This document shows, piece by piece, positions 470-16,820 of a DNA stretch of 17,144 bases; the stretch's first letter is position 1; each line of letters opens with the position of its first letter. The stretch covers positions 1-17,144 of the forward strand of contig JBMFJD010000013.1 in the NCBI GenBank assembly GCA_049974095.1. The letters run 5' to 3'. Both the position numbers and the translations under genes were made by a program. This DNA is from Nanopusillaceae archaeon (GTDB lineage: Archaea > Nanobdellota > Nanobdellia > Nanobdellales > Nanobdellaceae). The notes beneath the pieces are model-generated. The model had not been told where the DNA came from and ran no database searches. It saw nothing but the letters and a program-made list of their open reading frames with translations.

Positions 470-691
470 ATGGACAAAGAGAAGAAACTCAAAAATGTTA
501 CAACAACTGTACCAATAGAAATATATGAAAAAATTAAGGAAATGAAGATACCAATATCTAGACTTATATTACTAGGATACGAATCAGCCACTAAACAAAA
601 AGAAGAGGACAATCAAATAAGAGACTTACTAATAAGAATATATAACAAATTGTTAGATATTGAAGAATTAATAAAAAAGCCTAAATCTTAA
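470..691 (+). CDS. Ribbon-helix-helix (CopG/Arc/MetJ-like) DNA-binding protein, 73 aa
   Basis: The track ORF 452..691 starts at a TTG. The in-frame ATG at 470 sits 27 nt from the TATA-like box. MDKEKKLKNVTTTVPIEIYEKIKEMKIPISRLILLGYES fits a beta-strand/helix/turn/helix RHH pattern, followed by a coiled-coil-like tail. Confidence 0.55.
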   Translation: MDKEKKLKNVTTTVPIEIYEKIKEMKIPISRLILLGYESATKQKEEDNQIRDLLIRIYNKLLDIEELIKKPKS

Positions 692-1340
692 GAAAGTTAA
701 CATAGTTCCTATTCATATATAGTTTCTTTAAGAAATCATATAATTTTCTAATATTATTAACATCTCTTAGATTATACTCTACTAATTTATTAATATCGCT
801 ATATAAATCTTCTGTAAATTCATATTTTTCATCTAAATTTAACTCTTGAACTATATCTTTTAAAGAATAAAACTTAAAATCTCCTTTCTTTGCATACATA
901 TATATTGCTGTTGGTACAACAAGATCTAATATAGATACTATACTAAAGAATCTGGTCAGTGGTTTTATATTATACTTTCTAGCTTTATATATTAATAATG
1001 GAATATCTAAATACATTATACCATATCCAACGATTTGTCCAATTAACTTATTATATAATATTTTCCCAAGATGCTCTAATATTCTTTTTTCATCATCTAT
1101 ACCTCCATAAACAGTAAATGGTTCTAATTCATATTCATCAGTTACAATATTTCCACTATTTACAACATGGTTAACTGGTAATAACATAGCGACAGAGATT
1201 ATATGTACATTATCAAAACTAAGATTTTCATCAAATTTTGGATATGTTTCTATATCTATGAACCCGACATATCTATTATCATATAATCTAAACAAATTAT
1301 GAAAGTGTATATTCCAAGACCTTATCAACGCCTCATCCAT
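681..1340 (-). CDS. Stand-alone DEDDy-type 3'-5' exonuclease (RNase H-like fold; PolB exonuclease-domain / YprB-like), 219 aa
   Basis: Exo I-like motif YVGFIDIETYP. Exo II-like motif IVGYGIMYLDIPLLIYKARKYNI. Exo III-like motif YNLRDVNNIRKLYDFL (Y-x3-D). The first 19 codons of the track ORF (to 1397) run through the promoter region, so I start at the internal Met (MDEALIRSW, 1340), which is 28 nt from a TATA box. Confidence 0.6.
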   Translation of the reverse strand: MDEALIRSWNIHFHNLFRLYDNRYVGFIDIETYPKFDENLSFDNVHIISVAMLLPVNHVVNSGNIVTDEYELEPFTVYGGIDDEKRILEHLGKILYNKLIGQIVGYGIMYLDIPLLIYKARKYNIKPLTRFFSIVSILDLVVPTAIYMYAKKGDFKFYSLKDIVQELNLDEKYEFTEDLYSDINKLVEYNLRDVNNIRKLYDFLKKLYMNRNYVNFLKI

Positions 1341-1406
1341 TACTATATGATATAACAAATATTTATATGTGTTAAAGAATATAATTATATAAAACAAATA
1401 TTAATA
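1341..1406. promoter_or_regulatory. Divergent promoter region for the exonuclease and membrane-protein genes
   Basis: The element aaatatttatatgtgtt (1357-1373) is 28 nt from minus-strand ATG 1340. A second TATA-like box, ataattatataaaac, lies about 25 nt before plus-strand ATG 1407. Bases 1352-1373 are a perfect 22-bp reverse-complement match to 15740-15761. Confidence 0.5.
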
Positions 1407-2057
1407 ATGAAGGAAGAGACATACATATATATACTATTGTTTCTAGCAACATTACTCTTATTATTAACAGGATATAATCAATTAGCATATAACCCTGCAA
1501 ACGCAGCAATACTAGGATTTATCGTATTTTCAATATCCGTAGGACTATCTTTCCTATTATTATACTATATAGTACTATTTATTATTAGAAAAGAAATGTT
1601 TAATCCAATCTTGTTATTCTTTCCACTATTAGCAGCATTAGGATATTCATTAGCAAAGAAAGCAATAACTGGAGTATCAGTACAGGTATTAGGATCCACT
1701 GGACCACAAGCAGCATTATTACAGATAGTATCATTACTATCAGGATATGGAACTACAATAGAAATATTCGGAGCATGGCTTGGTTTTATAGTAATAGGTG
1801 CTTCTATTGCTTTAATCTTATTTGTATTAATATTAGCATCATATAACCAGATAGAAATGAATAGAGCATTAGAAGTAGCAATATTAGCGGGATTTGGTAT
1901 AGCCGCAGGGTTCGTTACAGGTCATTTAGCAACAACATCATTCTTATATCCTTTCGCAGCAACTGGAGGACCAACAATATATATCCCAGTATTCGGTATA
2001 ACATTAACTATTGGATTAGCTGCATTAGTAGGATCTATATACTTACTTAGACTTTAA
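1407..2057 (+). CDS. Polytopic membrane protein, 216 aa, about 6 predicted TM helices
   Basis: Long ORF with repeated about 20-residue hydrophobic stretches, e.g. IYILLFLATLLLLLTGY, AILGFIVFSISVGLSFLLLYYIVLFII and GFIVIGASIALILFVLILA. Promoter is upstream. Confidence 0.65.
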   Translation: MKEETYIYILLFLATLLLLLTGYNQLAYNPANAAILGFIVFSISVGLSFLLLYYIVLFIIRKEMFNPILLFFPLLAALGYSLAKKAITGVSVQVLGSTGPQAALLQIVSLLSGYGTTIEIFGAWLGFIVIGASIALILFVLILASYNQIEMNRALEVAILAGFGIAAGFVTGHLATTSFLYPFAATGGPTIYIPVFGITLTIGLAALVGSIYLLRL

Positions 2058-3123: not shown

Positions 3124-3152
3124 AAAAATAATATGTGATCAACACATATAAA
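3124..3152 (-). promoter_or_regulatory. Promoter of the 358-aa gene with palindrome atatgtg-atcaa-cacatat
   Basis: Inverted repeat at 3131-3149 (7-bp arms, 5-nt spacer). The 13-mer aacacatataaat (3141-3153) is identical to 15740-15752. Read on the minus strand, tttatatgtgtt starts 29 nt before the ATG. Confidence 0.5.
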
Positions 3153-3776
3153 TTATATACCAACAGCAATAATTGTCACAACCAGTAATAATATAACATC
3201 CATTAATAATATTTGCTGATATGTTAATGCAGCTAAGAAGAATCCACCTAAACCCAAGGATAATATAAAAAGTATTATAAACCCGATAACCATAGATAAT
3301 CTACCAATCCTTGGATATAGTGCATATACAAAGTATGTATAGAATAATAATAATACAAAATATGGAATAAGAATATCTGATAAAGGTACTTTATACATTG
3401 TCATATAATACATCAAATCACTATAGAATTTTAGAATTAAAGCAAGATCTGTTGGAGAAGCAAGAGTTGTAGTAACATTTGTATTAACAACTGTAGTATT
3501 ATTTTGCACTATTGTAAATGTATGAGGTACATAAACGGGTAAATAGTAAATAAATACAAGGATATATGCTACTGCCATTACTATTGTAAAAAATCCAAAT
3601 TTAGGAATGATAGAAGATAAAATATTTCTTATTACTAATGAAATTAAGAATAATAATATGACAACAAATATTATAATTAATATTGTAGATATTTCAAAAC
3701 CATGAAATAAAGAAGATATATTTGATACTGTAGAAGAAATAGAGCTATTAGTTACATTAAATATTGTTATATTCAT
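3153..3776 (-). CDS. Polytopic membrane protein, 207 aa, with N-glycosylation sequons
   Basis: Hydrophobic segments include ILIIIFVVILLFLISLVI, FFTIVMAVAYILVFIYYL, YFVLLLFYTYFVYALY and VIGFIILFILSLGLGGFFLAAL. Loops contain NVT, NSS, NIS, NTT and NVT. The start overlaps the upstream stop in an ATGA. Confidence 0.65.
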   Translation of the reverse strand: MNITIFNVTNSSISSTVSNISSLFHGFEISTILIIIFVVILLFLISLVIRNILSSIIPKFGFFTIVMAVAYILVFIYYLPVYVPHTFTIVQNNTTVVNTNVTTTLASPTDLALILKFYSDLMYYMTMYKVPLSDILIPYFVLLLFYTYFVYALYPRIGRLSMVIGFIILFILSLGLGGFFLAALTYQQILLMDVILLLVVTIIAVGI

Positions 3777-4545: not shown

Positions 4546-5546
4546 GGTAATCCTAAATTAAGGAATACTTGGGCTATATCTGGATGAGCCTGTGCTATCT
4601 TATTTAATGATTTCCTAAATATATCTGGATCTATTGATACATATTCTACTTCCTTACCAGTTGCTGCATCTGTCTCCTTATGTACTGTAATAAATAGTCC
4701 CATACCATATACTTTACATTTATTCCATATAGAGTTTATTAGCTCGCGAGTATCTTTAGGATCCATACTAAGGGTTGATGCTAGTTCATCGATAGATATA
4801 CTTAACTTTGGATATAATGCTCCTCTTTGTAATAATGTTAATATAAGATTTACTTCATTATCACTAAATATTGGCTTAGGTGATACTAATGGTCTATTAT
4901 ATAATGATTTTATATACTCCAATTTAGCATCAGTAGCTGCACTAGATAATTCTTCTGTCCTATTACTTTCCTCTGTTTCAGGTTGTTCTGCAACTTCTTC
5001 TACAGTCTGTCTTAATTCCTTAATCTTTTTAGCAATTTTACTTCTTTCCTCTACCAATGCAGAAATATATTGTCTTCTATATAATAAATATGCTATAACA
5101 TCATCAATTGGTCTTGTAAATATTTCTTTATAGAATTCTATTAAATCACCAAAATATGATAATAATTGAGAAACAGATAATATCCTTGGTACCTCACCTC
5201 TAACCTTTGTTAATATTGTCTCTATTAATGCTTGTATATAATTTAATGTAATACTAACTTGTGTATTTATTAAATCTGCAACACTCTTAGCCAATTCTTT
5301 ATTATCTGGATTTCTTATTAATAAATATGTAACTACATAATCTATTGCAATTCCCCTTATTACATCAATCCATCCAATTTTCTTAACCAATTGTTCTACT
5401 TCCTCACGTTCATATAAATAATTCAACTTATCTAATAATACAATTGCATCCATATACCTACTAAATAATCCTGTAGATACTAGTACCTTATACTTCTCAG
5501 GATTTTCATATATTAAATTTCTAATAACTTCAGTATATAGCGTCAT
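4542..5546 (-). CDS. Hypothetical helical protein, 334 aa, with an acidic linker and a possible C-terminal winged-helix
   Basis: ORF in the ATGA-coupled chain. Acidic stretch EEVAEQPETEESNRTEE. The C-terminal ISIDELASTLSMDPKDTRELINSIWNKCKVYGMGLFITV resembles HTH plus wing. Confidence 0.55.
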   Translation of the reverse strand: MTLYTEVIRNLIYENPEKYKVLVSTGLFSRYMDAIVLLDKLNYLYEREEVEQLVKKIGWIDVIRGIAIDYVVTYLLIRNPDNKELAKSVADLINTQVSITLNYIQALIETILTKVRGEVPRILSVSQLLSYFGDLIEFYKEIFTRPIDDVIAYLLYRRQYISALVEERSKIAKKIKELRQTVEEVAEQPETEESNRTEELSSAATDAKLEYIKSLYNRPLVSPKPIFSDNEVNLILTLLQRGALYPKLSISIDELASTLSMDPKDTRELINSIWNKCKVYGMGLFITVHKETDAATGKEVEYVSIDPDIFRKSLNKIAQAHPDIAQVFLNLGLP

Positions 5547-6685
5547 GCTTGTTGTTGAGGTGGTTGTTGTTGGCCTTGAGGTTGTTGTGGTGCTTGTGGT
5601 ATAGATATATTACCAGATAATATACCTCTAATTTCTGCCAATTGTGCAGACAATTGCTTTAATTTATCTATTACATCATTTTGTACTGCAATAATTTTTT
5701 CTGGAGCTAATGATGTTTCTAATGTTTTAATCCTTGCTGAATATTCATTAATCAGATCTTGTAAGTGCTCAGATTTTGATCTTTCTTGAGCAACATCCAA
5801 TTGCATTGCAGTACTAGATTCTACTGCTGCGAGTGTCGTAGGTAATACAATATTCTTAATATCTCTCATTGTTTTTTCATATAGATTCAATGAAGCAGTA
5901 GATACCGTACTAGCTACAGAGTTATATACCTTCTGTATCTGATTCTGTACAGATATCATCTCAGCATTAACCTTCGTAGATTCTAAATCATTTACTAATC
6001 TATTAATTGTTTGTTGTAATTCACCAATTATCTTTTCTGCTGGTTCACCACCATACATTCTATTCAATAAGTATGCAGGTACCTTTACAAGATTACCAGT
6101 TGGATCCTTATATAATAATAATGTAATTGATTCTGGAAGTTGTGATGCTAAATTTTCTGGATGGAATATTGCTTCCCATAATGAACCAAAGGGAGGTGTC
6201 ATAAATTCTTCTTTACCAGCTTTAATAACAAAGGCAATACCACCATCAGGATGTATAATTATATCTTTTAAATATCCTAACTTTTGTTTTGTTATATCAT
6301 AAACAACAGGAGGTTTTCTGAATGGAAGTAATCCTGCAGATCTAGCCCTCCTTAATAGATCATATAGTGATATTGGTAATTTACCAGTAGCCTTTTCTTC
6401 CTCATATAATTCTTCTAATATCTTACCAAATGCTTGCGACCTTAATTTATTTAACTCCTCTTCTAATTGTTTAGCTTTCTCCTCGCTTAATATTTTTTCC
6501 TGTCTTTCCTTTAATAATTGCTCGGTTAAAATTCTTGTTTGCTCATCTCTTGGTAATTGGGATATATCAATATTAGTAGGTTTAATTACACCAGCTGCTT
6601 TACCAAACTTATACTTAATATAATTAATCATTAAAGAGAAGGTATATTTATAGGCTTCCAATAATGTTTTAAATGGATTCTTCAT
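5543..6685 (-). CDS. Coiled-coil protein, 380 aa, with a Q/P-rich C-terminal tail
   Basis: Heptad-like charged segments (EQLLKERQEKILSEEKAKQLEEELNKLRSQ, and the C-terminal half). Tail is PQAPQQPQGQQQPPQQQA. ATGA overlaps at both ends. Confidence 0.6.
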   Translation of the reverse strand: MKNPFKTLLEAYKYTFSLMINYIKYKFGKAAGVIKPTNIDISQLPRDEQTRILTEQLLKERQEKILSEEKAKQLEEELNKLRSQAFGKILEELYEEEKATGKLPISLYDLLRRARSAGLLPFRKPPVVYDITKQKLGYLKDIIIHPDGGIAFVIKAGKEEFMTPPFGSLWEAIFHPENLASQLPESITLLLYKDPTGNLVKVPAYLLNRMYGGEPAEKIIGELQQTINRLVNDLESTKVNAEMISVQNQIQKVYNSVASTVSTASLNLYEKTMRDIKNIVLPTTLAAVESSTAMQLDVAQERSKSEHLQDLINEYSARIKTLETSLAPEKIIAVQNDVIDKLKQLSAQLAEIRGILSGNISIPQAPQQPQGQQQPPQQQA

Positions 6686-8526
6686 TGTTTTCTAATTTCC
6701 TGAGTAATTTTCTCAGCCAATTCAGTAACACCTTTAGAAGAAGATTTTCTGTATATTATTATTGATATCAATGTAAATGCTAAGATTGCTATAACTATAT
6801 ATAATACATTACCTTCCAACCAAGAGGTAATATTGAATGATGGTTTTGGTGGAGGAATATATGGAGGTGAAATATAAATTGTATATGTAGTAGTATTAAT
6901 TAGAGGTCCTGAGATATCCAATTCATATTGTCCAATTGTAAAGTTATATGTTAATGATCCAGTACCAGTTGCTTCCTGTACTCTAGTACCATTAATATAT
7001 TCATATAATATTAATTGCGCCTGATCTACAAAATCACCTTGTGCTTGTATTGTATATTCTCCAGGTGTAGTTGGTAAATTACTTACAGTTATTGGTGTAT
7101 AACCAAGAAGGGTAATGTTTGTTAATGAATAACCTGGTGCGGATATTGTAATCATATTTTGACCTTCTTGTATGGGGAATGTTGTAGAATATGTAGGTAT
7201 ACCATTATAATAGAATGTTGCTCCAAGTACAGGTTGCATTGAATTACAATCATAAACACTCTGTATAGTTACATTAGTTCCATCTGGATAATATATGTTT
7301 CCATTATATTGCTGTCCTTTTGGAGATATTATATAACATAAAGGTCTTGGAGGTGCTTGAACACATGAGAAGAATGGTACATAATTTTGCGCATACGAGT
7401 ATATACAATATGTCTGTCCAGGAATAACAGGTATAGGATATTGATATGATAATGCTTGACCATTTGGTCCTATTACTAATATATTTGCATTTGGTATATA
7501 GTATGTGGATCCATTATAATATACATATGCGCCTTGAATAAATAGATAACCAGAAGATATTGTATAATTAACCTGTAATGGTAATTGAACAGTAGCGGGA
7601 ATTGGACTTGTTTGTTGTGTAGTAGATTGCGTATTAGTAATATTTTGTCCTAATGAACTTATAACATATAAATCAATACTGGTTTGAGCATTATAAACTT
7701 TATTATCAGCTTCTCCAGTATATACTATGACTATATTATATTGTCCTAGAGGCATTCCGGCAGTATTAATATATAAAGTCATATATGCATACTGTCCCGG
7801 TGCCAATGTTCCAACCCCTCCTTGAATATAAGCATTTTGAGGTGGTAATCCTTGAATAAGTACATTTAATATTGTTAAATTATCATTACCTGTATTTATA
7901 ATACCAATTGGATACTCATATGTTTGATTTGTATATAAGGTTAGTGATGCAAATGAATATAATGGAGTTATAGGATTAGATACATTTGTTGTTGGTGGTG
8001 TAGACACAGTAGTGGTAGTAGTAACATTAGAGGTTGGAGTTGTAGTAGTAACATTCTGTAAAGTAGTTGTAGTACCAACATTAAATACAAAACCATAAGT
8101 AATATTATAAGTAGTTAATGTGGTACCATTTGTATTATTGACATTTGGTACAAAAAAGAAACTTATCATACCAGATCCTGATTGCGCAACCGACAATTGT
8201 AATGGTGTAATACCAGTAAGTATAGAAATATTAGCAGAATAAGATTGCCCAGATGCTAAATATGAACCTGCAGAATATAATGCTGTAGGAGAACCAGAAT
8301 AGGTTATTGTAACATTATATGGAACCTCTGTATTATATATATTCAGATATACGAACGGAGAACTAGGGTTAAGATTACACATATATGAAGCCGGAGAAGA
8401 TTGGACACAGTTAGGTACTGTTATTGCTGGTTGAGCTTTAACAGAAAAAATAAATATTAGGGACATTAACAATACACTGATATACCTTCTGACCCTATCA
8501 CGAATTGTCTTTACTTCACCATTCAT
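6682..8526 (-). CDS. Membrane-anchored, heavily N-glycosylatable surface or adhesin-like protein, about 614 aa: signal peptide, Thr-rich linker, CARDB/Ig-like beta-rich regions, C-terminal TM anchor
   Basis: The track ORF begins at a TTG (8583). ATGs lie at 8541 and 8526. The 8526 ATG is about 28 nt from the TATA-like ttataaatataaat. N-terminus is MNGEVKTIRDRVRRYISVLLMSLIFIFSVKAQP. Linker is NVTTTTPTSNVTTTTTVSTPPTTNVS. There are dozens of N-x-S/T sequons. LAPGQYAYMTLYINTAGMPLGQYNIVIVYTGE resembles a CARDB-type beta-sandwich. C-terminal anchor is LYIVIAILAFTLISIIIYRK. Confidence 0.7.
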   Translation of the reverse strand: MNGEVKTIRDRVRRYISVLLMSLIFIFSVKAQPAITVPNCVQSSPASYMCNLNPSSPFVYLNIYNTEVPYNVTITYSGSPTALYSAGSYLASGQSYSANISILTGITPLQLSVAQSGSGMISFFFVPNVNNTNGTTLTTYNITYGFVFNVGTTTTLQNVTTTTPTSNVTTTTTVSTPPTTNVSNPITPLYSFASLTLYTNQTYEYPIGIINTGNDNLTILNVLIQGLPPQNAYIQGGVGTLAPGQYAYMTLYINTAGMPLGQYNIVIVYTGEADNKVYNAQTSIDLYVISSLGQNITNTQSTTQQTSPIPATVQLPLQVNYTISSGYLFIQGAYVYYNGSTYYIPNANILVIGPNGQALSYQYPIPVIPGQTYCIYSYAQNYVPFFSCVQAPPRPLCYIISPKGQQYNGNIYYPDGTNVTIQSVYDCNSMQPVLGATFYYNGIPTYSTTFPIQEGQNMITISAPGYSLTNITLLGYTPITVSNLPTTPGEYTIQAQGDFVDQAQLILYEYINGTRVQEATGTGSLTYNFTIGQYELDISGPLINTTTYTIYISPPYIPPPKPSFNITSWLEGNVLYIVIAILAFTLISIIIYRKSSSKGVTELAEKITQEIRKQ

Positions 8527-8541
8527 AAAATATGAATACAT

Positions 8542-8575
8542 ATTTATATTTATAAGTGTTGCTAAATGTATCAAA
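8542..8575 (-). promoter_or_regulatory. Probable promoter of the glycoprotein operon
   Basis: The minus strand reads acacttataaatataaat directly upstream of the two candidate ATGs. Spacing favours a leaderless start at 8526. Confidence 0.4.
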
Positions 8576-8583
8576 GCGTACAA

Positions 8584-8937: not shown

Positions 8938-9558
8938 TCATCTTTTATTATTTACAGGTCTTAATTTACATACTCCATAACCTAAATTCCTACCTCTTCC
9001 TATTTTTATTGTTATTTCCTCATTTAAATCCGACTGTGCTTCAATTAAGAATCTACTACCATCAGTAATCGCTTCTAATATTACTGGTGATTTTGTTTTA
9101 CTATTATAGTTAGCATATAACATTAAGGATATATTTTCAGGTTTTACATCTGTTAATATAAAATCTGCACCACCATCATATTTCACTGCATATCTTAATG
9201 GTCTAATAAAGTAAGACCACCAGTCAATCCATGATAAATAATCCTCATAAGTTTTAATTTTACCAATATCTGCATGTTTTCTCGGAAATAAATAATCAAT
9301 TTTTATGTATCCATCGTCAAGTAATGGTTTCTCTAATTCCTTCTTTTTAATCTTATAAACCTCTTTCAGTGCTGAATCCCTGTCCATTTTCTCAAATAGA
9401 TCCTTATACTTTGCTATATCTTCCTCCGTTAGTACAATTTTATGCTCTAATATCTTAAAATCTTTCATATCCATTTTTGCAAATACCCTAAAAGAAAATA
9501 CTTCCTTATTCAATCCACCCAATATCGGAGTTATAACTTCTAGCTCGTATGATGCCAT
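8938..9558 (-). CDS. RAMP / Cas6-like protein, 206 aa (putative RNA-binding protein or endoribonuclease)
   Basis: The C-terminal glycine-rich loop IKIGRGRNLGYGVCKL fits the RAMP G-x-G-x3-G-x-G loop near the C-terminus (compare the Cas6e-type GIGxxKxxGxGLL). The N-terminal YELEVITPILGG resembles the beta1 'TPxxxGG' of Cmr1/Cas7-type RAMPs. It is the last gene of the operon. Confidence 0.4.
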   Translation of the reverse strand: MASYELEVITPILGGLNKEVFSFRVFAKMDMKDFKILEHKIVLTEEDIAKYKDLFEKMDRDSALKEVYKIKKKELEKPLLDDGYIKIDYLFPRKHADIGKIKTYEDYLSWIDWWSYFIRPLRYAVKYDGGADFILTDVKPENISLMLYANYNSKTKSPVILEAITDGSRFLIEAQSDLNEEITIKIGRGRNLGYGVCKLRPVNNKR

Positions 9559-9563
9559 ACATA

Positions 9564-9836
9564 CTAATATGTGTAAATACTCTTAAAAACCTTAAGGTTT
9601 GGTATTATTATATATAATTTTCCATCTACTTCAGATACAATACCCAATGATTTTAATATAGATATAACATCCTTATCAAATGAGTATGAATCTAGAAAGT
9701 ATATTACACCATCAAGAGTACCATAATTATCTATAAGCTTTTTAATAATATCCTGTATTTTTGGGTCTGTTATAAGATCAAGTAGTTTATATATATCTAT
9801 ATTATCTAAAATGAATAATCTATAACCTATAGACAT
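9564..9836 (-). CDS. Small winged-helix-like protein, 90 aa
   Basis: ISILKSLGIVSEVDGKLYIIIP resembles a recognition helix plus beta-wing. It overlaps the upstream gene by 17 nt and ends 5 nt before the next start. Confidence 0.4.
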   Translation of the reverse strand: MSIGYRLFILDNIDIYKLLDLITDPKIQDIIKKLIDNYGTLDGVIYFLDSYSFDKDVISILKSLGIVSEVDGKLYIIIPNLKVFKSIYTY

Positions 9837-11601
9837 CGTTTTCTAATTTAATTTCTTTTCTTGCAACCATTTCATTCAATATTCTGTCTAATACTAGTAA
9901 TACATTAGTTTCTCTCTTAATAATTATTTGCCTATTTTCTACCATATTTTGTATTATTTGTCTCAGTTCATTTAACCTTTTTGGACCAGTAGATAAAATA
10001 TTCTTTATAACACCTTCTAGATCTTTTTGTGATGATATAATATACTGTATCTTAATATTACAATATTTATCATAAAATACACCGAGGTATGATTTATAGA
10101 AATCTAATACATTCTTTGCCTGTAGTGTAGTATTCATAAAAGATAATAAATGCATTAATGAAAAAAATGCAATAGCATATTTTACTTCATCAATAGTAAT
10201 AGTAGTCCTATTATTTAATACAGCAAATATCTTAGCCATTTTACTTATTGTCTCCTTTCTTTCATATAAGAACTCATAGAATTGTGGATAAAATCTATTT
10301 ATATTTTTAGCCTCATCCTCAAATAACTTATCGAAATTACCAGTAATATTATAACTATTCAACATATGCTTAACAAATTGGATATAATCATACATATTAT
10401 ACCCAGATACCTGTAATGGTATATCTACAGCAATTGGTACTAAGAAATCTACTTTCTCAACATAGTATTGGAACATCCTTAACAAAGTATTATATAATGA
10501 TGTAAAGGACGAGAAATCTGTATACTTAGAAGATTTATATACTAATATTATATTTTTACCCTCATATAATGCTTTGTCTATCTTTATCTTTAATTCCTTA
10601 GTAGTCTGTTGTACATTATTAATTATCATATTATCATCAATAATAGACGGACTACTAGTAACCCTATAATGTAATATTGAAGCTATTTTATCAATATATA
10701 TTTGCTTGGCATCAATATACATTACAGAAAAGTTATAGAATAAATTGAATACTACAGGTAATGTGGTTAATACATCATCAATATCTAAATATGCTAAAAG
10801 ATGTAATAATTTCTCATCAGGTCTTAACTTTAATATATTTAACATATTATACATATTATACTCATAGTCGTCAATAATGTACAAACCTATCGCAAGATAA
10901 GCTTTCGTAACAACCTTCCTATGTATAATTTCCTGAGCAAGCTCCCTATCCATTTCAATAGCAATATATTTATATCTTAGCTTACTCTCCTTAGCAAACC
11001 TGTATAATTCTTCAGGTATTATTAAAGCAATATTACCCAATCTAGTATCTTCCCCATATATCTTTACCCCATTAAGAACAACCCTAGTAAATCCTACAAT
11101 AGATGATACATTACCCTTAAATGAACATACAGGACATGATAATGGAGGATATTTCTTTAATGATAATATATGATGACCTCTCTCACATGTAGATCTATTA
11201 ATGTATATCGATTCCATTACCACCCTATTTGGCTTAACATTTAATTCTAAAAGGTTATATACAGATTTTAATCTTTGATATAATGGATTCTTTAAATCTC
11301 TAATAATTAGGAATACCATAGGTATATTAGATAATATCTTTATTTTCTCATTTTCTAATGAGAATAATGCATATGATGAATTTTCAAGATAAGTTGTTAA
11401 ATCATTACCAGATAGCAAAAAGTTATATACATCATATAGTGGAGAATATTTATTATCTGGTTCATCACCCATGATATAATAATATTGATCTAGATCAATG
11501 AATAAAGAATTATTATATAATAAACCTACATGTATATCTGGTGGAGTATTTACAATAAAATTATATGGGTTCTTATTAGTAATTATTTTAGTAGGAAGCA
11601 T
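9820..11601 (-). CDS. Large Zn-ribbon protein, 593 aa. Either an MCM-like N-terminal domain with a degenerate ATPase and C-terminal wH, or an AEP primase-like N-terminus. Unresolved.
   Basis: C139/H143-H144/C156/C159 (STCERGHHILSLKKYPPLSCPVCSFKG) parallels the MCM Zn module of the neighbouring MCM (HEKCGYEF...ICPKCGESG) and is roughly collinear with it. There is no intact Walker A or B; the closest is IILVYKSSKYT. It has a lid-like helix ISKMAKIFAVLNNRTTITIDEVKYAIAFF and a wH-like C-terminus ...MVARKEIKLENDVYRL. Alternatively, LFIDLD (hhhDhD) and ERGHHIL resemble AEP primase motifs I and II. Confidence 0.35.
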   Translation of the reverse strand: MLPTKIITNKNPYNFIVNTPPDIHVGLLYNNSLFIDLDQYYYIMGDEPDNKYSPLYDVYNFLLSGNDLTTYLENSSYALFSLENEKIKILSNIPMVFLIIRDLKNPLYQRLKSVYNLLELNVKPNRVVMESIYINRSTCERGHHILSLKKYPPLSCPVCSFKGNVSSIVGFTRVVLNGVKIYGEDTRLGNIALIIPEELYRFAKESKLRYKYIAIEMDRELAQEIIHRKVVTKAYLAIGLYIIDDYEYNMYNMLNILKLRPDEKLLHLLAYLDIDDVLTTLPVVFNLFYNFSVMYIDAKQIYIDKIASILHYRVTSSPSIIDDNMIINNVQQTTKELKIKIDKALYEGKNIILVYKSSKYTDFSSFTSLYNTLLRMFQYYVEKVDFLVPIAVDIPLQVSGYNMYDYIQFVKHMLNSYNITGNFDKLFEDEAKNINRFYPQFYEFLYERKETISKMAKIFAVLNNRTTITIDEVKYAIAFFSLMHLLSFMNTTLQAKNVLDFYKSYLGVFYDKYCNIKIQYIISSQKDLEGVIKNILSTGPKRLNELRQIIQNMVENRQIIIKRETNVLLVLDRILNEMVARKEIKLENDVYRL

Positions 11602-12430
11602 ATCCTAATAATGGATTGGCAACACTAATAAAATATTTTAAGGCCTCTTCAATATACTGTTCCTTAACAATATTATCTCCATAACTTCTAGCAATTGCCT
11701 TCGCTAACCTTATTATTGTATTTACCCTCCTACCAGTAAAATATAAACCAGTATATGATATATTTAGATTAACCCTAATATTTTCTGGTACCTGTACATT
11801 AATACTTCTAACCGTGTTCAAATAATTCAATAGCTCATTATTATCAAAAGTATATGTCTCTTCAGTATGAGAACCAAACGATCTATTTAATAAAAATATT
11901 AGATCAAGTCTATCAATAACAGTACCTGGTAAATCAAGTTCATCTAAATAGTTCTTACTCTCAAAGAAATCCTTTCTTGGGTTAGCTGCAGCAAGTACTG
12001 CAAGATTAACATCATAAGATACATCAACCTTTGCCTTTTCAATAGTTACTTTAAGATCCTCTAATAACTCATTTAATGAATTTTTGAATGTCTTATTAGC
12101 CTTATCAAGCTCATCTATACATAATATATTATTTACTTTAGATATTGTACCATGTACAAACCCTACTTTTCTATCAGGATATCCATATAATCCAGGTATT
12201 GTAGTAGTTTGTGCATTAACATATAGAGAACCAGGTATATTACTAACAAATTTTAGGATATGAGTCTTACCAGTACCTGGTATCCCGTATAGTAATATAT
12301 GTATCGAATCTCTGAAGAATTGACTCTTACCAATAGATATTAATTGGTAAGCAATACCTAACCTTATCTTAGCATAAATATTACCCTTGAGTGAAGGGAA
12401 CAAACCATTAATAAGATCCTGGAAATCCAT
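11588..12430 (-). CDS. MCM-family AAA+ ATPase core without the N-terminal (Zn/OB) or C-terminal wH domains, 280 aa
   Basis: Walker A LLYGIPGTGKTHIL. Walker B ILCIDELDKA (MCM IDEFDK type). VTIEKAKVDVSYDVNLAVLAAANP matches KAGI...AAANP (pre-sensor-1 hairpin and sensor 1). VIDRLDLIFLL is the SRFDLIF arginine-finger region. TGRRVNTIIRLAKAIARS is the sensor 2 / lid. The protein starts where the MCM ATPase domain normally starts (FPSLKGNIYAKIRLGIAYQL). It overlaps the downstream gene by 14 nt. Confidence 0.8.
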   Translation of the reverse strand: MDFQDLINGLFPSLKGNIYAKIRLGIAYQLISIGKSQFFRDSIHILLYGIPGTGKTHILKFVSNIPGSLYVNAQTTTIPGLYGYPDRKVGFVHGTISKVNNILCIDELDKANKTFKNSLNELLEDLKVTIEKAKVDVSYDVNLAVLAAANPRKDFFESKNYLDELDLPGTVIDRLDLIFLLNRSFGSHTEETYTFDNNELLNYLNTVRSINVQVPENIRVNLNISYTGLYFTGRRVNTIIRLAKAIARSYGDNIVKEQYIEEALKYFISVANPLLGYASY

Positions 12431-12498
12431 ACTTTATATATTGTAAATAAATGTTTATATTTGTTCAAACATATAAATGTTTGTAATAATAATATCTT
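12431..12498. promoter_or_regulatory. Divergent promoter / operator region between the mini-MCM operon and the 68-aa gene
   Basis: taaatgtttata (12448-12459) is identical to 421-432. On the minus strand it gives tataaacattt 29 nt before ATG 12430. The palindrome caaacat-ataa-atgtttg (12466-12483) includes a tataaa 27 nt before ATG 12499. Confidence 0.5.
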
Positions 12499-12705
12499 AT
12501 GGATCAAATAGAAGCAAAATGTAGGGCAGTAAGAGATTTTTATGCACAATTTCTTGGAGAGGAAAATGTATCATATAAAGTTGAAAATGGCTTATGTTTA
12601 ATAGATATAAAGTTGCCACCAGACCAATTACAAAGAGAATACACAACTGTATTAGCTTATCTCGGTCCACAGCAACAACAAACACAGCAACAGCTACAAC
12701 TATAG
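12499..12705 (+). CDS. Small hypothetical protein, 68 aa, with a Q-rich C-terminal tail
   Basis: The ATG is well spaced from the TATA box. Composition is balanced (MDQIEAKCRAVRDFYAQFLGEENVSYKVENGLCLIDIKLPPDQLQREY...) and ends GPQQQQTQQQLQL. A T-rich tract follows. Confidence 0.5.
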   Translation: MDQIEAKCRAVRDFYAQFLGEENVSYKVENGLCLIDIKLPPDQLQREYTTVLAYLGPQQQQTQQQLQL

Positions 12706-12724: not shown

Positions 12725-12729
12725 AACAC

Positions 12730-12769
12730 ATATGAATAAGTATATAAAGGTTTTTTACAATATGAATAA
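12730..12769 (+). promoter_or_regulatory. MCM promoter: TATA box flanked by a direct repeat
   Basis: tatataaa at 12741-12748 is about 25 nt upstream of ATG 12770. atatgaataa occurs at 12730-12739 and 12760-12769, bracketing it. Confidence 0.5.
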
Positions 12770-14902
12770 ATGGTAGTAGGATATGAAGAAATTATTAATA
12801 AAATAGATCTAAAATCTCTTTTTTTAAAATATATAGCAGTACAGAAGAAGGTAGATAGAGAGATGATGTTTTTACAATATATGGATGAAACCCCAGTAAA
12901 AGAAGCATTATTATTATATGAGAAAATAAAGGATGATCTATCAGATTCTATTAAAAAGAATAAATCTGTTGTTGCCATTCCTGCTTCAAAGCTTTTTGAA
13001 TCGTTTGGAGTATTAGCTTTAGATATTTTAAATGATGCAGAAACATATGAATTGTTCACAAAATTTATGGAATATATATTAGACTGGAGATTTCACTCTG
13101 CATATCCAATAAATGTTACTATTGCAAAATTACCAGCAGAAGAGGAGGAAGATCCAAAAAGAAGAGCATTTACAAAGGAGATAAGATTAATAAATAAGAG
13201 CATGTTAAACAGGGTAATACAAATACCTGCAATAGTAGTAGCAACTACAGAGAATTATATTCATGTAGCATCAATAAAATATAGACATGAGAAATGTGGG
13301 TATGAATTTGAAGTACCACAAGGACCATTTACAAAAGAAAAACCAAAGATATGTCCAAAATGTGGGGAATCTGGTAAATTCATAGAGGTAGAATATAAAA
13401 AGACAAATGGTAAGAAGTTATTATTATCAGATTTACCAGAAAACCTGAAGGTAGGAAAACCTGGAGTAATAATGGCCCTCATGTATAGAGATTATTTATT
13501 TGATCCATACAATGAAGTAAATGTATATCCAGGTATGCGTGCATATATAGTTGGTATAGTAAAATCTGCAAAAAAGGAAAAAGAGAAGGAAGAACAATTA
13601 TACATAGATGTATTATGGATAGAACCATTAGAAGAAAAGAAGATTGAATTAACAGATAAGGATAAAGAACAATTAAAAAACATGTTACCAGAGGGTGATG
13701 TTATAAAGTTCATTGCAGATACTATGTTCCCAAATATTTATGGTACACAATACTCATTTATTAAACAAGCAATATTATTAGCAATAGTATCTGGATATGA
13801 TAAGATAGATGATAACATAAAGAAATATTATAAACTAGACAGGTTAAATATACATGTGTTAATGGTAGGTGGACCTGGTACTGGTAAATCAACAATATTA
13901 GAAAGAGTAGTAAGGTTAGTACCAAGATCTTCATACATTACATTAACAACCGCAACAACAACAGGTTTAACAGCATCTGTTAGAAAAGATCCTGTATTGG
14001 GAGATTGGGTATTAGAAGTTGGTGCCATACCTCTAGTAGCTAATGGTGTTGCATGTATAGATGAGATCGATAAAATACCAAAACAAGAAATAACAAAACT
14101 ACATGAAGTAATGGAACAGCAAACAATTACAATACATAAAGCAAACATTCATACATTAATAGAATCTCCAGTATCAATTATAGCAGCAGCAAATCCAAAG
14201 TTTGGAAAATGGGATATACATCAAGACATATTAGCACAAATAGATCTACCACAAACAATATTAGACAGATTTGATCTAATATTTGCAATAATACCAGAAC
14301 AACAAGAAATGAAGGTAATTGGTAAAGAGATAATTAGAAATGTAAATATTAGTGAAACACCAACAATCGATGATCAAACATTAACAAAATATATAGTATA
14401 TGCTAGGAGTATCATACCTGAATGGACAGATCCTGCAATAGGAGAACTAGATAAATTATATGAAGAATTATCTAGTAAACCTGGTATATATATTACAACA
14501 AGACAGATAAATACAATAGTAAGGTTGGCAATTGCATCAGCAAAGGCAAGGTTATCAAAATATATAACAGAGTGGGATGTACAAAAAGCAAAAGAGATAT
14601 ATCTTTCATCCTTATATAGTATAGGAGTAGATCCATTTACACACCAGGTAGATATAACAATAAAAGAAACTGGATTTTCAAGATCAGAAGCAACATTAGC
14701 ACAATTAGTAGTAGATTCTATAAAAGAATTAGAAAAAGATTTTCCAAATGGTGTACCAATATCAGAAATTGTAAATTCGATAAAGAATAAAAATGTTGAT
14801 GTAGATGAAGAATCTGTAAAATATATAATAGAAAAATTGAAGAAGGTTGGTGAAGTATATGAATCTGGAGAAAATAAAGTAAAAAGAATAGTAAAAAGCT
14901 AA
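12770..14902 (+). CDS. mcm: Full-length archaeal-type MCM replicative helicase, 710 aa
   Basis: N-terminal domain with Zn module HEKCGYEF...KICPKCGESG. Walker A VLMVGGPGTGKST. Walker B VACIDEIDK. ITIHKANIHTLIESPVSIIAAANP. Arginine finger LDRFDLIFAI. Sensor 2 / lid ITTRQINTIVRLAIASAKA. C-terminal wH-like tail. Length is typical for archaeal MCM and gives no sign of an intein. Confidence 0.92.
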   Translation: MVVGYEEIINKIDLKSLFLKYIAVQKKVDREMMFLQYMDETPVKEALLLYEKIKDDLSDSIKKNKSVVAIPASKLFESFGVLALDILNDAETYELFTKFMEYILDWRFHSAYPINVTIAKLPAEEEEDPKRRAFTKEIRLINKSMLNRVIQIPAIVVATTENYIHVASIKYRHEKCGYEFEVPQGPFTKEKPKICPKCGESGKFIEVEYKKTNGKKLLLSDLPENLKVGKPGVIMALMYRDYLFDPYNEVNVYPGMRAYIVGIVKSAKKEKEKEEQLYIDVLWIEPLEEKKIELTDKDKEQLKNMLPEGDVIKFIADTMFPNIYGTQYSFIKQAILLAIVSGYDKIDDNIKKYYKLDRLNIHVLMVGGPGTGKSTILERVVRLVPRSSYITLTTATTTGLTASVRKDPVLGDWVLEVGAIPLVANGVACIDEIDKIPKQEITKLHEVMEQQTITIHKANIHTLIESPVSIIAAANPKFGKWDIHQDILAQIDLPQTILDRFDLIFAIIPEQQEMKVIGKEIIRNVNISETPTIDDQTLTKYIVYARSIIPEWTDPAIGELDKLYEELSSKPGIYITTRQINTIVRLAIASAKARLSKYITEWDVQKAKEIYLSSLYSIGVDPFTHQVDITIKETGFSRSEATLAQLVVDSIKELEKDFPNGVPISEIVNSIKNKNVDVDEESVKYIIEKLKKVGEVYESGENKVKRIVKS

Positions 14903-15722: not shown

Positions 15723-15761
15723 TCATAATATATGTAAAAAACACATATAAATATTTGTTAT
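15723..15761 (-). promoter_or_regulatory. Promoter of the 187-aa membrane-protein gene; carries the 22-bp element shared with 1352-1373
   Basis: 15740-15761 is the exact reverse complement of 1352-1373. There is also a palindrome tatatgt-N7-acatata (15729-15749). Confidence 0.5.
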
Positions 15762-16151: not shown

Positions 16152-16256
16152 AATTGTTATCACTGTTTACGAGGAATATACCCAACTACCATGCTTCCCA
16201 AAAAATATATATAATATATATTTTTTTACGCGTAAGGTTTTGTGTAGAACACATAT
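16152..16256 (+). repeat. About 105-bp repeat unit R1 (box1 - A/T spacer - box2)
   Basis: aattgttatcactgtttacgaggaatatacc...cttccc / aaaaaatatatataatatatattttttt / acgcgtaaggttttgtgtagaacacatatt. Aligns by eye with R2 at roughly three-quarters identity. Confidence 0.8.
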
Positions 16257-16274
16257 TATTATAGTAAAATATAG

Positions 16275-16380
16275 AATTGTTATTACTCTTTACGGGTATT
16301 ATACCTTCCATTGAGTTTCCCAAAGGAAATATATATATATTATTTTTTTACGCATGGGGTTTTGTGTAGAATATGTGTTC
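16275..16380 (+). repeat. About 105-bp repeat unit R2, direct copy of R1 about 123 bp downstream
   Basis: aattgttattactctttacgggtattatacc...gtttccc / aaaggaaatatatatatattattttttt / acgcatggggttttgtgtagaatatgtgtt. Confidence 0.8.
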
Positions 16381-16716
16381 TATTATATATTATTATTATA
16401 TAAATATTATAATATAATATAATAAAAATATTTATATATTATTATATAACTATTTATTACTAATAAATAGTAAAAAAATCTCTTTTAATATATATTTTTA
16501 ATAAATATTAATATGTGTTTATTATTATATTATATAATATTATTTATTATTATAACAAATATTTAACAAATATTAAAAAGGTATATATAAAGGAAATTTT
16601 TTACTATTTATTAGTAATAAATAATAACAATATTATTTATAAATATTATATAATATATTATTAATAATTATTATTTTTTAATAATAATTTTTTATATAAT
16701 AATAAATAATAATAAT
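16381..16716. promoter_or_regulatory. About 336-bp extreme A+T core; candidate DNA-unwinding element of a replication origin
   Basis: My hand count gives about 16 G/C in 336 nt, or about 95% A+T. No ORF. It is bracketed by R2 and inverted R3. Confidence 0.55.
16451..16623. repeat. Perfect 27-bp inverted repeat inside the A+T core (arms 16451-16477 and 16597-16623, 119-bp spacer)
   Basis: tatttattactaataaatagtaaaaaa versus ttttttactatttattagtaataaata, which are exact reverse complements. Each arm also holds its own 9-bp palindrome, tatttatta-N-taataaata. Confidence 0.85.
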
Positions 16717-16820
16717 AACATGTGTTTAACACAACAGGGTCTTCGTGAAAAATTATATAATATATATTTTTTTTCGGAGACCCCCTGGTAGGTCATATTC
16801 CTGGTAATAAGTAGTAACAT
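16717..16820 (-). repeat. About 105-bp repeat unit R3, inverted copy of R1/R2
   Basis: Its reverse complement reads atgttactacttattaccaggaatatgacctaccagggggtctcc / gaaaaaaaatatatattatataattttt / cacgaagaccctgttgtgttaaacacatgtt. It is collinear with R1 at roughly 65-80% identity per segment by eye. Confidence 0.7.

Follow-up and report, generated by a model that had tools for sequence, protein, structure and literature searches.

Organization of the MCM genes

The 17,144-bp DNA stretch analyzed in this work (contig JBMFJD010000013.1, referred to below as the window; G+C content about 28 %) belongs to an element that is an uncultivated archaeal virus or plasmid. It codes for a full-length MCM, for a motor-only MCM (mini-MCM) and for an MCM-like protein of 593 amino acids (aa) that is devoid of ATPase motifs. 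The latter, termed here the 593-aa protein, its likely origin and its relation to mini-MCM are the subject of this report. The three genes are disposed as follows.

9820..11601, minus strand: gene of the MCM-like 593-aa protein without ATPase motifs, an open reading frame (ORF) with an ATG start
11588..12430, minus strand: mini-MCM, 280 aa, AAA+ core and lid only (Pfam MCM, 1.4e-29; PDB MCM4, 6e-22)
12770..14902, plus strand: full-length MCM, 710 aa, divergent from the mini-MCM operon (Pfam MCM_OB, MCM, MCM_lid and MCM_WH_arc)

The gene coding the 593-aa protein is the second of an operon. It is preceded on the same strand by the mini-MCM gene, whose stop overlaps its start by 14 nt in the window. 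An overlap of 7-23 nt is found in every locus that holds this junction (the window and the related loci L001-L008, L010 and L011, see below). Such start/stop overlap implies that mini-MCM and the 593-aa protein are probably made in fixed proportion. The gene arrangement establishes a strict and apparently translationally coupled linkage of the 593-aa protein to an intact motor-only MCM, a linkage suggesting that the former complements the latter. The initial annotation, made from the DNA sequence alone, offered two readings of this ORF: an inactivated MCM paralogue that provides the N-terminal domain missing in mini-MCM, or a partner related to archaeo-eukaryotic primases (AEPs). The ORF is real, as are the sequence strings on which these readings were built, namely LFIDLD (residues 33-38), the putative zinc ligands (residues 139-159) and IILVYKSSKYT (residues 351-361).

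Homologs of the 593-aa protein

Searches of Pfam, PHROG, NCBIfam and PADLOC with the 593-aa protein gave only sub-threshold noise, and there was no match to curated MCM models (Pfam PF00493 at its gathering score; NCBIfam NF040949). The faint matches were to AAA_lid_2 (E 0.07, residues 452-478) and to PHROG 3022, which is named 'DNA primase' (E 0.0019, residues 445-566). BLASTP against the window MCM returned no match, and phmmer and profile hmmsearch against PDB sequences returned nothing relevant. Only three close relatives (97, 84 and 83 % identity) were found in a word-index search, again the only ones obtained when an 8-sequence alignment served as query. When 1.84 billion cluster representatives were searched exhaustively by HMMER with a 4-sequence profile, the three clusters of the protein's own family and one fragment were retrieved, nothing else. 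No DNA or protein match was present in the GenBank set of phages and archaeal viruses, the family was not found in IMG/VR or in GTDB representative genomes, and a metagenome scan added fragments only.

The distant members of the family were reached through synteny, mini-MCM homologs (55-58 % identity) being found in metagenomic contigs that display the same gene order. These contigs code for homologs of the 593-aa protein with 600-623 aa that are 31-38 % identical to it over their full length (BLASTP 1e-73 and 8e-66) and form four further clades. The order of genes in the related loci is full-length MCM (683-711 aa, on the opposite strand), mini-MCM (278-286 aa) and the homolog of the 593-aa protein (600-623 aa), followed by genes coding proteins of ~90-100 aa and ~200-213 aa and then by the same downstream genes, which are probably structural. 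The ratio of nonsynonymous to synonymous substitution rates (dN/dS) of the gene is 0.06-0.10 in comparisons with its close relatives and 0.16 in the least conserved middle region. The 593-aa protein is thus under strong purifying selection, its middle region included, and is the product of a functional gene rather than of a pseudogene.

An MCM-type OB/Zn domain in the N-terminal half

The region of the 593-aa protein with the clearest relationship to MCM lies downstream of its first 95 residues.

Residues 96-245 (10867..11316, minus strand): N-terminal OB fold of MCM type that contains a Zn-binding subdomain as an insert, defined by hhalign and by the AlphaFold2 (AF2) model
C139-x3-H143-x12-C156-x2-C159 (11125..11187, minus strand): Zn module with invariant ligands

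The family profile was compared by hhalign with an MCM profile made of six element MCMs and fourteen cellular MCMs. Residues 126-245 of the 593-aa protein align with residues 163-289 of the window MCM, which correspond to the Pfam MCM_OB stretch with its Zn insert (P 7.6e-5 for whole proteins and 5.6e-6 for the isolated domains). Reversed profiles used as controls gave P 0.18-0.35, and 40 column shuffles scored 8.0-23.8 versus 40.2 for the real alignment. The register places C139 at C176 of the window MCM and C156/C159 at C195/C198. The fourth ligand, H143, is found three residues after C139 while the histidine of the window MCM is found three residues before the equivalent cysteine, so that the first ligand pair reads C-x3-H instead of H/C-x2-C. 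The complete module (residues 139-159, translation checked) reads CERGHHILSLKKYPPLSCPVC. All nine family members have C139, H143, C156, P157 and C159, whereas the neighboring H144 is not conserved (H/T/S/Y/N). MCM Zn motifs containing histidine are known (PMC4619765). The AF2 model of residues 96-245 is rich in beta strands and has a predicted local distance difference test score (pLDDT) of 60-83. At the sequence level, the profile match and the invariant ligands establish an MCM-type OB/Zn N-terminal tier in the 593-aa protein, bearing out the C/H...CxxC module and the OB-like segment that the initial annotation had recognized there.

Fold of the whole chain

Beyond the OB/Zn domain the relationship to MCM emerges mostly from structure prediction. 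An AF2 model computed from 4 near-identical sequences has a pLDDT of 38 and yielded no significant Foldseek match (best E 0.67). The model computed from 6 sequences, two distant clades included, is of medium quality with a pLDDT of 58 and a predicted template modelling score of 0.40; it is confident for residues 96-245 and 420-593, and of low confidence for residues 1-95 and for most of 245-420. Foldseek comparison of the latter model to the PDB gave 97 matches at E<=1e-3. The top 50 of these 97 are all MCM chains (E 2.7e-7 to 2.8e-5, probability 0.89-1.0), which belong to human, yeast, fly, worm and frog Mcm2-7 and to the archaeal MCMs of S. solfataricus and M. acidophilum, and the MCM alignments span 509-775 columns. 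The pLDDT-38 model of the same sequence has no significant match, which argues that composition does not drive the MCM matches; its best non-significant matches are the AAA+ modules of Mg-chelatase and MCM. One significant match, to an unnamed 560-residue protein, was found among predicted viral structures with an E-value and a span comparable to those of the MCM matches. Permissive hhalign alignments of the 593-aa protein with MCM are, at low confidence, collinear from the N- to the C-terminus; the global mode was uninformative. A broader outcome of this work is that proteins invisible to all sequence-family libraries can be assigned by combining synteny-guided collection of homologs with structure prediction.

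Three segments follow the OB/Zn domain.

Residues 246-420 (10342..10866, minus strand): presumed stripped-down, inactive AAA+ alpha/beta core, proposed from the collinear low-confidence alignments
Residues 421-500 (10102..10341, minus strand): AAA+ lid-like helical bundle, with a model pLDDT of 64-81 and 25 % of positions invariant
Residues 501-593 (9823..10101, minus strand): C-terminal winged-helix-like domain, from the model and hhalign

The lid-like bundle aligns through residues 450-479 with MCM residues 581-610 (hhalign P 0.004 in one profile, 0.06-0.3 in others). A longer segment, residues 377-481, aligns with the mini-MCM family from the arginine-finger strand through the lid (P 0.033). 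R448, which is a lysine in one clade, and the invariant K449 occupy the position of the 'TRQ'-like sensor 2 of the MCM lid. The C-terminal domain is modelled as three helices followed by a beta-hairpin (pLDDT 69-88) and aligns with the winged-helix region of MCM with a P of 0.017. Retention of both a lid-like bundle and a C-terminal winged helix is moderately supported. The lid-like helix and winged-helix-like C-terminus put forward in the initial annotation have confidently predicted counterparts in the model (pLDDT 64-88), with profile matches at the P-values given above.

Loss of the ATPase motifs

The central region between the OB domain and the lid counts about 175 residues, about 75 fewer than the about 250 residues of the element MCM. 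The GK[ST] signature is absent from the entire length of all 9 family members and residues 240-347 of the 593-aa protein include no glycine, which excludes a P-loop; the Walker A equivalent would be located at about residues 275-300, a segment without glycine. In the low-confidence collinear alignments, the MCM Walker B 'CIDEIDK' faces IINNVQQ, IIPDIQY or ILVNVQD, the sensor-1 strand 'AAANP' faces a strand ending in VYKSS or IYRGD, and the 'SRFDL' arginine finger faces EKVDF or DYVDF with K, R or Y at the position of the arginine. The Asp-Glu pair of Walker B, the sensor-1 asparagine and the arginine of the finger are not conserved at any of these aligned positions. The individual motif mappings carry no statistical support, but the motifs are missing however the sequences are aligned. 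The sequences of the family thus establish that all ATPase motifs have been lost, as the initial annotation had anticipated for the single protein. Its placement of IILVYKSSKYT at the position of Walker A does not hold: this string falls after the strand equivalent to Walker B, close to the pre-sensor-1/sensor-1 region in the low-confidence alignments. The same alignments locate the deletions at the helix-2 insert and at the pre-sensor-1 hairpin, and the core is, judging from its length, probably too short to accommodate these hairpins. The AF2 model predicts at residues 291-390 a beta-alpha-beta pattern that fits an ASCE core.

The invariant N-terminal module

The N-terminus upstream of the OB/Zn domain is composed of a conserved module and a linker.

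Residues 1-45 (11467..11601, minus strand): most conserved module of the family, with 17 of 45 positions invariant among four clade representatives
Residues 32-40 (11482-11508, minus strand): invariant SLxIDLDQY motif
Residues 46-95 (11317..11466, minus strand): variable linker with clade-specific insertions, with 2 of 50 positions invariant

Invariance reaches 38 % in the module, and the linker displays indels of up to about 13 residues. S32, L33, I35, D36, L37, D38, Q39 and Y40 are invariant among 8-9 homologs, as are R101, D102 and N105 in the family after the linker. The module has no Pfam match and its AF2 model is of low confidence. Residues 1-125, compared with MCM residues 1-165 that include subdomain A, gave a hhalign P of 0.44 and are modelled as short strands and helices at low confidence. 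The module may serve in docking or constitute a small metal-binding site.

The initial annotation compared this region to AEPs, taking LFIDLD as motif I and ERGHHIL as motif II. The hhhDhD pattern of the first string is real: LFIDLD overlaps a strand predicted at residues 32-36 and both of its aspartates, D36 and D38, are invariant. Its attribution to AEPs finds no backing, since a DxD string alone is not specific of these enzymes and neither the whole proteins nor isolated N-terminal fragments match any AEP, Prim-Pol or D5_N family at E<=10 in Pfam, PHROG and NCBIfam. Likewise, no AEP structure is present among the top 50 Foldseek PDB matches or among the viral-structure matches. The second string belongs elsewhere: H143 is a ligand of the Zn module, H144 is not conserved, and the family has no conserved histidine between the DxD and residue 138. 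An acidic residue that could stand for AEP motif III is available in sequence as the invariant D102, in a region where the model is of low confidence. The AEP catalytic core is about twice the size of the about 95-125 residues that precede the OB domain of the 593-aa protein. AEP membership was rejected on these grounds (histidine engaged in the Zn module, variability of residues 46-95, insufficient length, absence of any AEP match). The suggestion that the two polypeptides recreate a primase-MCM architecture is likewise not sustained, the N-terminal tier being an MCM-like OB/Zn domain and no AEP family or structure being detected.

Mini-MCM, the probable partner protein

Some 43 residues precede Walker A in mini-MCM and its chain stops past the lid; it has neither an N-terminal tier nor a winged helix. 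Its ATPase residues are complete. The Walker A GxPGTGK[ST], the Walker B DE, the sensor-1 asparagine, the arginine finger IDR[LF]D and the sensor-2 RR are invariant in 9 homologs. Mini-MCM is only 31 % identical to the full-length MCM of the element over the AAA+ region and is therefore not a recent duplicate of it. In the mini-MCM family (11588-12430 in the window and P0004-P0011) the helix-2 insert lacks about 7 residues relative to that of the element full-length MCM, and the lysine of the pre-sensor-1 hairpin (VTIEKAK or VTIAKAG) is replaced in three clades (VTISLGG, VTISAAG and VTISIAG). Variation of these loops next to invariant ATP-site residues indicates that the DNA-contacting loops of mini-MCM evolve faster than its ATPase.

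Assignment of the 593-aa protein

The 593-aa protein is probably a highly diverged and catalytically dead paralogue of archaeal MCM that is co-translated with mini-MCM and acts as its non-catalytic partner, supplying an N-terminal DNA-binding collar and a winged helix. The first reading of the initial annotation is thereby favored, with support from the structure search, the profile match of the Zn/OB domain, the loss of motifs and the invariant overlap with an intact mini-MCM gene. In such a protein the alpha/beta ATPase core that separates the OB domain from the lid would have shrunk to about 175 residues, and subdomain A of MCM would have been replaced by the residues 1-45 module with its SLxIDLDQY motif and the variable linker. 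The dead paralogue would assemble with mini-MCM, either in a mixed ring or as a docked N-terminal collar, and provide in trans the OB/Zn tier for DNA binding and oligomerization as well as the winged helix. This tier would set loading, processivity and choice of substrate, ATP hydrolysis being carried out by mini-MCM alone. A hetero-oligomer of one or the other type is considered the most likely arrangement of the two proteins. A farther-reaching version, in which a mobile element of DPANN/Nanoarchaeota type has split MCM into an obligate two-gene machine forming a hetero-oligomeric ring, whose dead subunit contributes through its DxD module a catalytic or recruiting function that no MCM is known to have (e.g., metal-dependent nucleotidyl transfer or docking of a polymerase/primase), is considered rather unlikely.

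Several observations weigh against a dead MCM partner. Sequence methods see MCM in the 593-aa protein solely in the OB/Zn region, and the AF2 model that extends the similarity to the whole chain was built on 6 sequences. The Foldseek TM-scores among the MCM matches are only about 0.2, a value to be expected from the model if single domains match while their relative placement is unreliable. Residues 246-420 have a hhalign P of 0.4 and a pLDDT mostly <50; the 'degenerate AAA+ core' is thus deduced from collinearity and context. The invariant DxD module is not accounted for by a dead MCM. The active sites of mini-MCM need no partner, as it possesses both an arginine finger and a sensor 2.

The last point also bears on the main functional rival, according to which the 593-aa protein is an origin-recognition or loading factor that binds the origin (e.g., the repeats at about 16200-16800) through its OB/Zn domain and winged helix and then, like Orc1/Cdc6 or Cdt1, recruits or loads mini-MCM, the full-length MCM or both. 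Mini-MCM, with its complete set of cis and trans ATPase residues, could form a ring of its own. The winged helix and lid are the best conserved C-terminal parts of the 593-aa protein, the segment 16195-16647 contains direct repeats and an imperfect 103-nt inverted repeat, and the scan of ten window proteins revealed no initiator, be it Orc1/Cdc6 or another. However, several small ORFs without assignment could code for an initiator, and the 593-aa protein has no sequence or structural similarity to Orc1/Cdc6 or Cdt1, its top structural matches being MCM subunits over the full length. An origin-binding loader is judged improbable, though it ranks ahead of the other rivals. Slightly less credit is given to a chimera in which an MCM-like OB/Zn domain is fused to an unrelated helical region and winged helix, the collinearity with MCM being an artefact of a low-confidence model. 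The restriction of statistical similarity to the OB/Zn region, the poor scores of the middle region and the low TM-scores would all follow from such a fusion. It is harder to reconcile with Foldseek alignments that extend over 509-775 columns instead of about 150, with the alignments of the lid to the MCM lid (in one profile) and to mini-MCM from the arginine-finger strand onwards, with the best C-terminal matches of the pLDDT-38 model, non-significant as they are, being AAA+ modules, and with the beta-alpha-beta pattern of the middle region.

The last rival holds that the 593-aa protein is an AEP-type primase or primase-polymerase partner of mini-MCM, with D36, D38 and D102 forming a metal-binding catalytic site, as in the comparison with a Bacillus cereus prophage protein. 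It draws on the invariance of D36, D38, R101, D102 and N105, on the residues 1-45 module being the best conserved part of the protein and on the scans of the window with Pfam, PHROG and NCBIfam, in which no primase was identified elsewhere. The weak match to the PHROG 'DNA primase' family is of little help, for it covers the C-terminal lid/winged-helix part of that family, which is not catalytic. Given the negative family and structure searches, a histidine of ERGHHIL that serves an MCM-type Zn module with no other conserved one between the DxD and D102, a linker prone to indels and only about half the length of an AEP core before the OB domain, this rival is very improbable. Moreover, the N-terminus of the B. 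cereus prophage protein (BcMCM) itself showed no primase activity (PMC2715239). Two further candidates were set aside. A role as dominant-negative poison of the host MCM is unlikely because there is no detectable similarity in the ring-forming AAA+ tier and the gene is strictly linked to the element's own mini-MCM, and an Orc1/Cdc6 homolog is dismissed for want of any structural or sequence match.

Relationship to known MCM systems

The dead paralogue favored here shares with archaeal MCM (S. solfataricus MCM, PDB 3F9V/4R7Y; PF17207, PF00493, PF17855 and PF21120) an OB domain with a Zn insert which is followed, in the same order, by a presumed alpha/beta region in the center, a lid-like bundle and a probable winged helix. 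Its Zn ligands are in register with those of the window MCM and its best structural matches are MCM chains. It differs by the absence of Walker A and B, sensor 1 and a conserved arginine finger, by a central region about 75 residues shorter, by an unrelated conserved 45-residue module in place of subdomain A and by not being recognized by any MCM sequence model.

Methanopyrus kandleri MCM2 (MkaMCM2) and eukaryotic MCMBP are naturally inactive MCM paralogues. MkaMCM2 lacks the Zn subdomain, whose module the 593-aa protein keeps. The 593-aa protein resembles both proteins in its MCM-derived architecture, in the loss of ATPase motifs and in being kept by selection. They are presumed to act via assembly or regulation of active MCM, as proposed for the 593-aa protein. 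Neither is known to be translationally coupled to an N-terminally truncated active MCM, unlike the 593-aa protein, which is also far more diverged and resides on a mobile element. The structure of MkaMCM2 has been determined (PDB 3F8T; PMC4619765).

On its own, the AAA+ domain of S. solfataricus MCM acts as a minimal helicase, and the N-terminal half supplied in trans stimulates it and alters its processivity and choice of substrate (Barry et al. 2007, PMC1807962). The element's pair has the same composition, a motor-only AAA+ polypeptide and a separate polypeptide carrying the N-terminal DNA-binding tier. The S. solfataricus system is an engineered split of one gene, whereas mini-MCM and the 593-aa protein are encoded by separate and anciently diverged genes; moreover, the 593-aa protein has no detectable AAA+ similarity and retains what appear to be a lid and a winged helix in addition to an inactive AAA+-like body. 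BcMCM of the Bacillus cereus prophage is a fusion of a primase-like N-terminus to an MCM AAA+ domain (PMC2715239). Both systems feature an MCM AAA+ motor of a mobile element with a non-canonical N-terminal part that binds zinc and single-stranded DNA, a likeness that would hold for the OB/Zn tier of the 593-aa protein. In BcMCM this part is AEP-like and belongs to the same polypeptide, while in the element it is an MCM-like OB/Zn tier coded by a separate gene.

Inactive MCM paralogues and mobile-element MCM motors with non-canonical N-termini are therefore already known. What is new is the combination, on one element, of a dead MCM paralogue bearing a Zn/OB domain, an obligate motor-only mini-MCM, a novel and invariant N-terminal module and three MCM-derived genes. 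Archaeal MCMs are used as simple homohexameric models of the eukaryotic Mcm2-7 heterohexamer, whose subunits have unequal catalytic roles. If the assignment is correct, the pair offers a minimal system to define the trans contributions of the N-terminal tier and of the winged helix, and bears on how rings tolerate or exploit inactive subunits and on the evolution of heteromeric MCMs by duplication and subfunctionalization. A two-gene ring would be a minimal prokaryotic analog of the specialized-subunit logic of Mcm2-7. The three-MCM-gene replication module also adds to the poorly known mobilome of small-genome archaea from hot environments.

Other features of the element

One member of the 593-aa protein family (P0045, MGC9133249.1) is found with an adjoining mini-MCM (MGC9133248.1) on a 59.9-kb contig of a metagenome-assembled genome labelled Nanopusillaceae. 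The full-length MCM of the element is closest to MCMs of DPANN archaea and Desulfurococcales (33-37 % identity in a pattern-limited scan). Together, these affiliations make a small archaeon of hot environments the probable host. Searches of the literature on mini-MCMs, nanoarchaeal viruses and Nanopusillus viruses with MCM turned up no description of this element, and no tRNA genes or clues to integration were found in the window or in the related loci. The features that surround the MCM genes are listed below.

9564..9836, minus strand: 90-aa ORF, next operon gene after that of the 593-aa protein, syntenic in all related loci
8938..9558, minus strand: 206-aa ORF, last gene of the operon, syntenic in all related loci
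1361-1372, 3142-3153, 8548-8559, 12467-12478, 12726-12737, 15741-15752 and 16507-16518: copies of the motif ACACATATAAAT
6682-8583, 5543-6685 and 3153-3776 (minus strand) and 1407-2057 (plus strand): downstream block, syntenic in all related contigs

The 90-aa ORF overlaps the 3' end of the gene coding the 593-aa protein by 17 nt. Its product weakly matches the C-terminal part of JetB in PADLOC (7.7e-5), and this replication operon may thus include a small winged-helix protein. The product of the 206-aa ORF has no family match in Pfam, PHROGs, NCBIfam and PADLOC, and every related locus keeps it as a protein of 199-213 aa. Its terminal segments, YELEVITPILGG at the N-terminus and IKIGRGRNLGYGVCKL at the C-terminus, resemble, respectively, the opening motif and the glycine-rich loop found in RRM proteins of the RAMP/Cas6 type.

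Allowing <=1 mismatch, ACACATATAAAT occurs in 7 copies versus 1.0 expected, a number reached in 0 of 200 shuffles. The copies are mostly within or near intergenic regions, one of them 33 nt upstream of the full-length MCM start and another upstream of a 68-aa ORF at 12499; none lies between the mini-MCM gene and that of the 593-aa protein. The motif is probably a promoter of TATA/BRE type or an operator of the element. The region 16195-16800 is non-coding and AT-rich (G+C about 22 %). It features the two arms of the imperfect 103-nt inverted repeat (16427-16529 and 16545-16647), 55-nt direct repeats at 16195 and 16317 and several smaller repeats, and is a candidate origin of replication.

In the distant clades, a gene directly downstream of the one for full-length MCM codes for a multi-Zn-ribbon protein of 124-129 aa with weak similarity to Zn_ribbon_RPB9 (L006, 1025-1399; L007, 7508-7888; L011, 834-1223). 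The clade of the window does not have it at that position.

The downstream block codes for a 633-aa protein that is rich in Ser/Thr/Asn and bears a transmembrane helix at its C-terminus, a 380-aa coiled-coil protein whose tail is rich in Gln/Pro, and several membrane proteins of the multi-pass type. Among the block proteins that were scanned, neither a capsid nor an integrase family was recognized. In its make-up the block resembles the structural module of an archaeal virus of the enveloped or spindle type. Beyond it, a 238-aa ORF (681-1397, minus strand) shows weak similarity to RNase_H_2 (Pfam) and to a DNA-polymerase exonuclease (PHROG), and its product may be a 3'-5' exonuclease of DEDD type. 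The TTG start listed for this ORF is probably too far upstream, since the promoter-like motif at 1361-1372 is followed by an in-frame ATG (MDEAL...).

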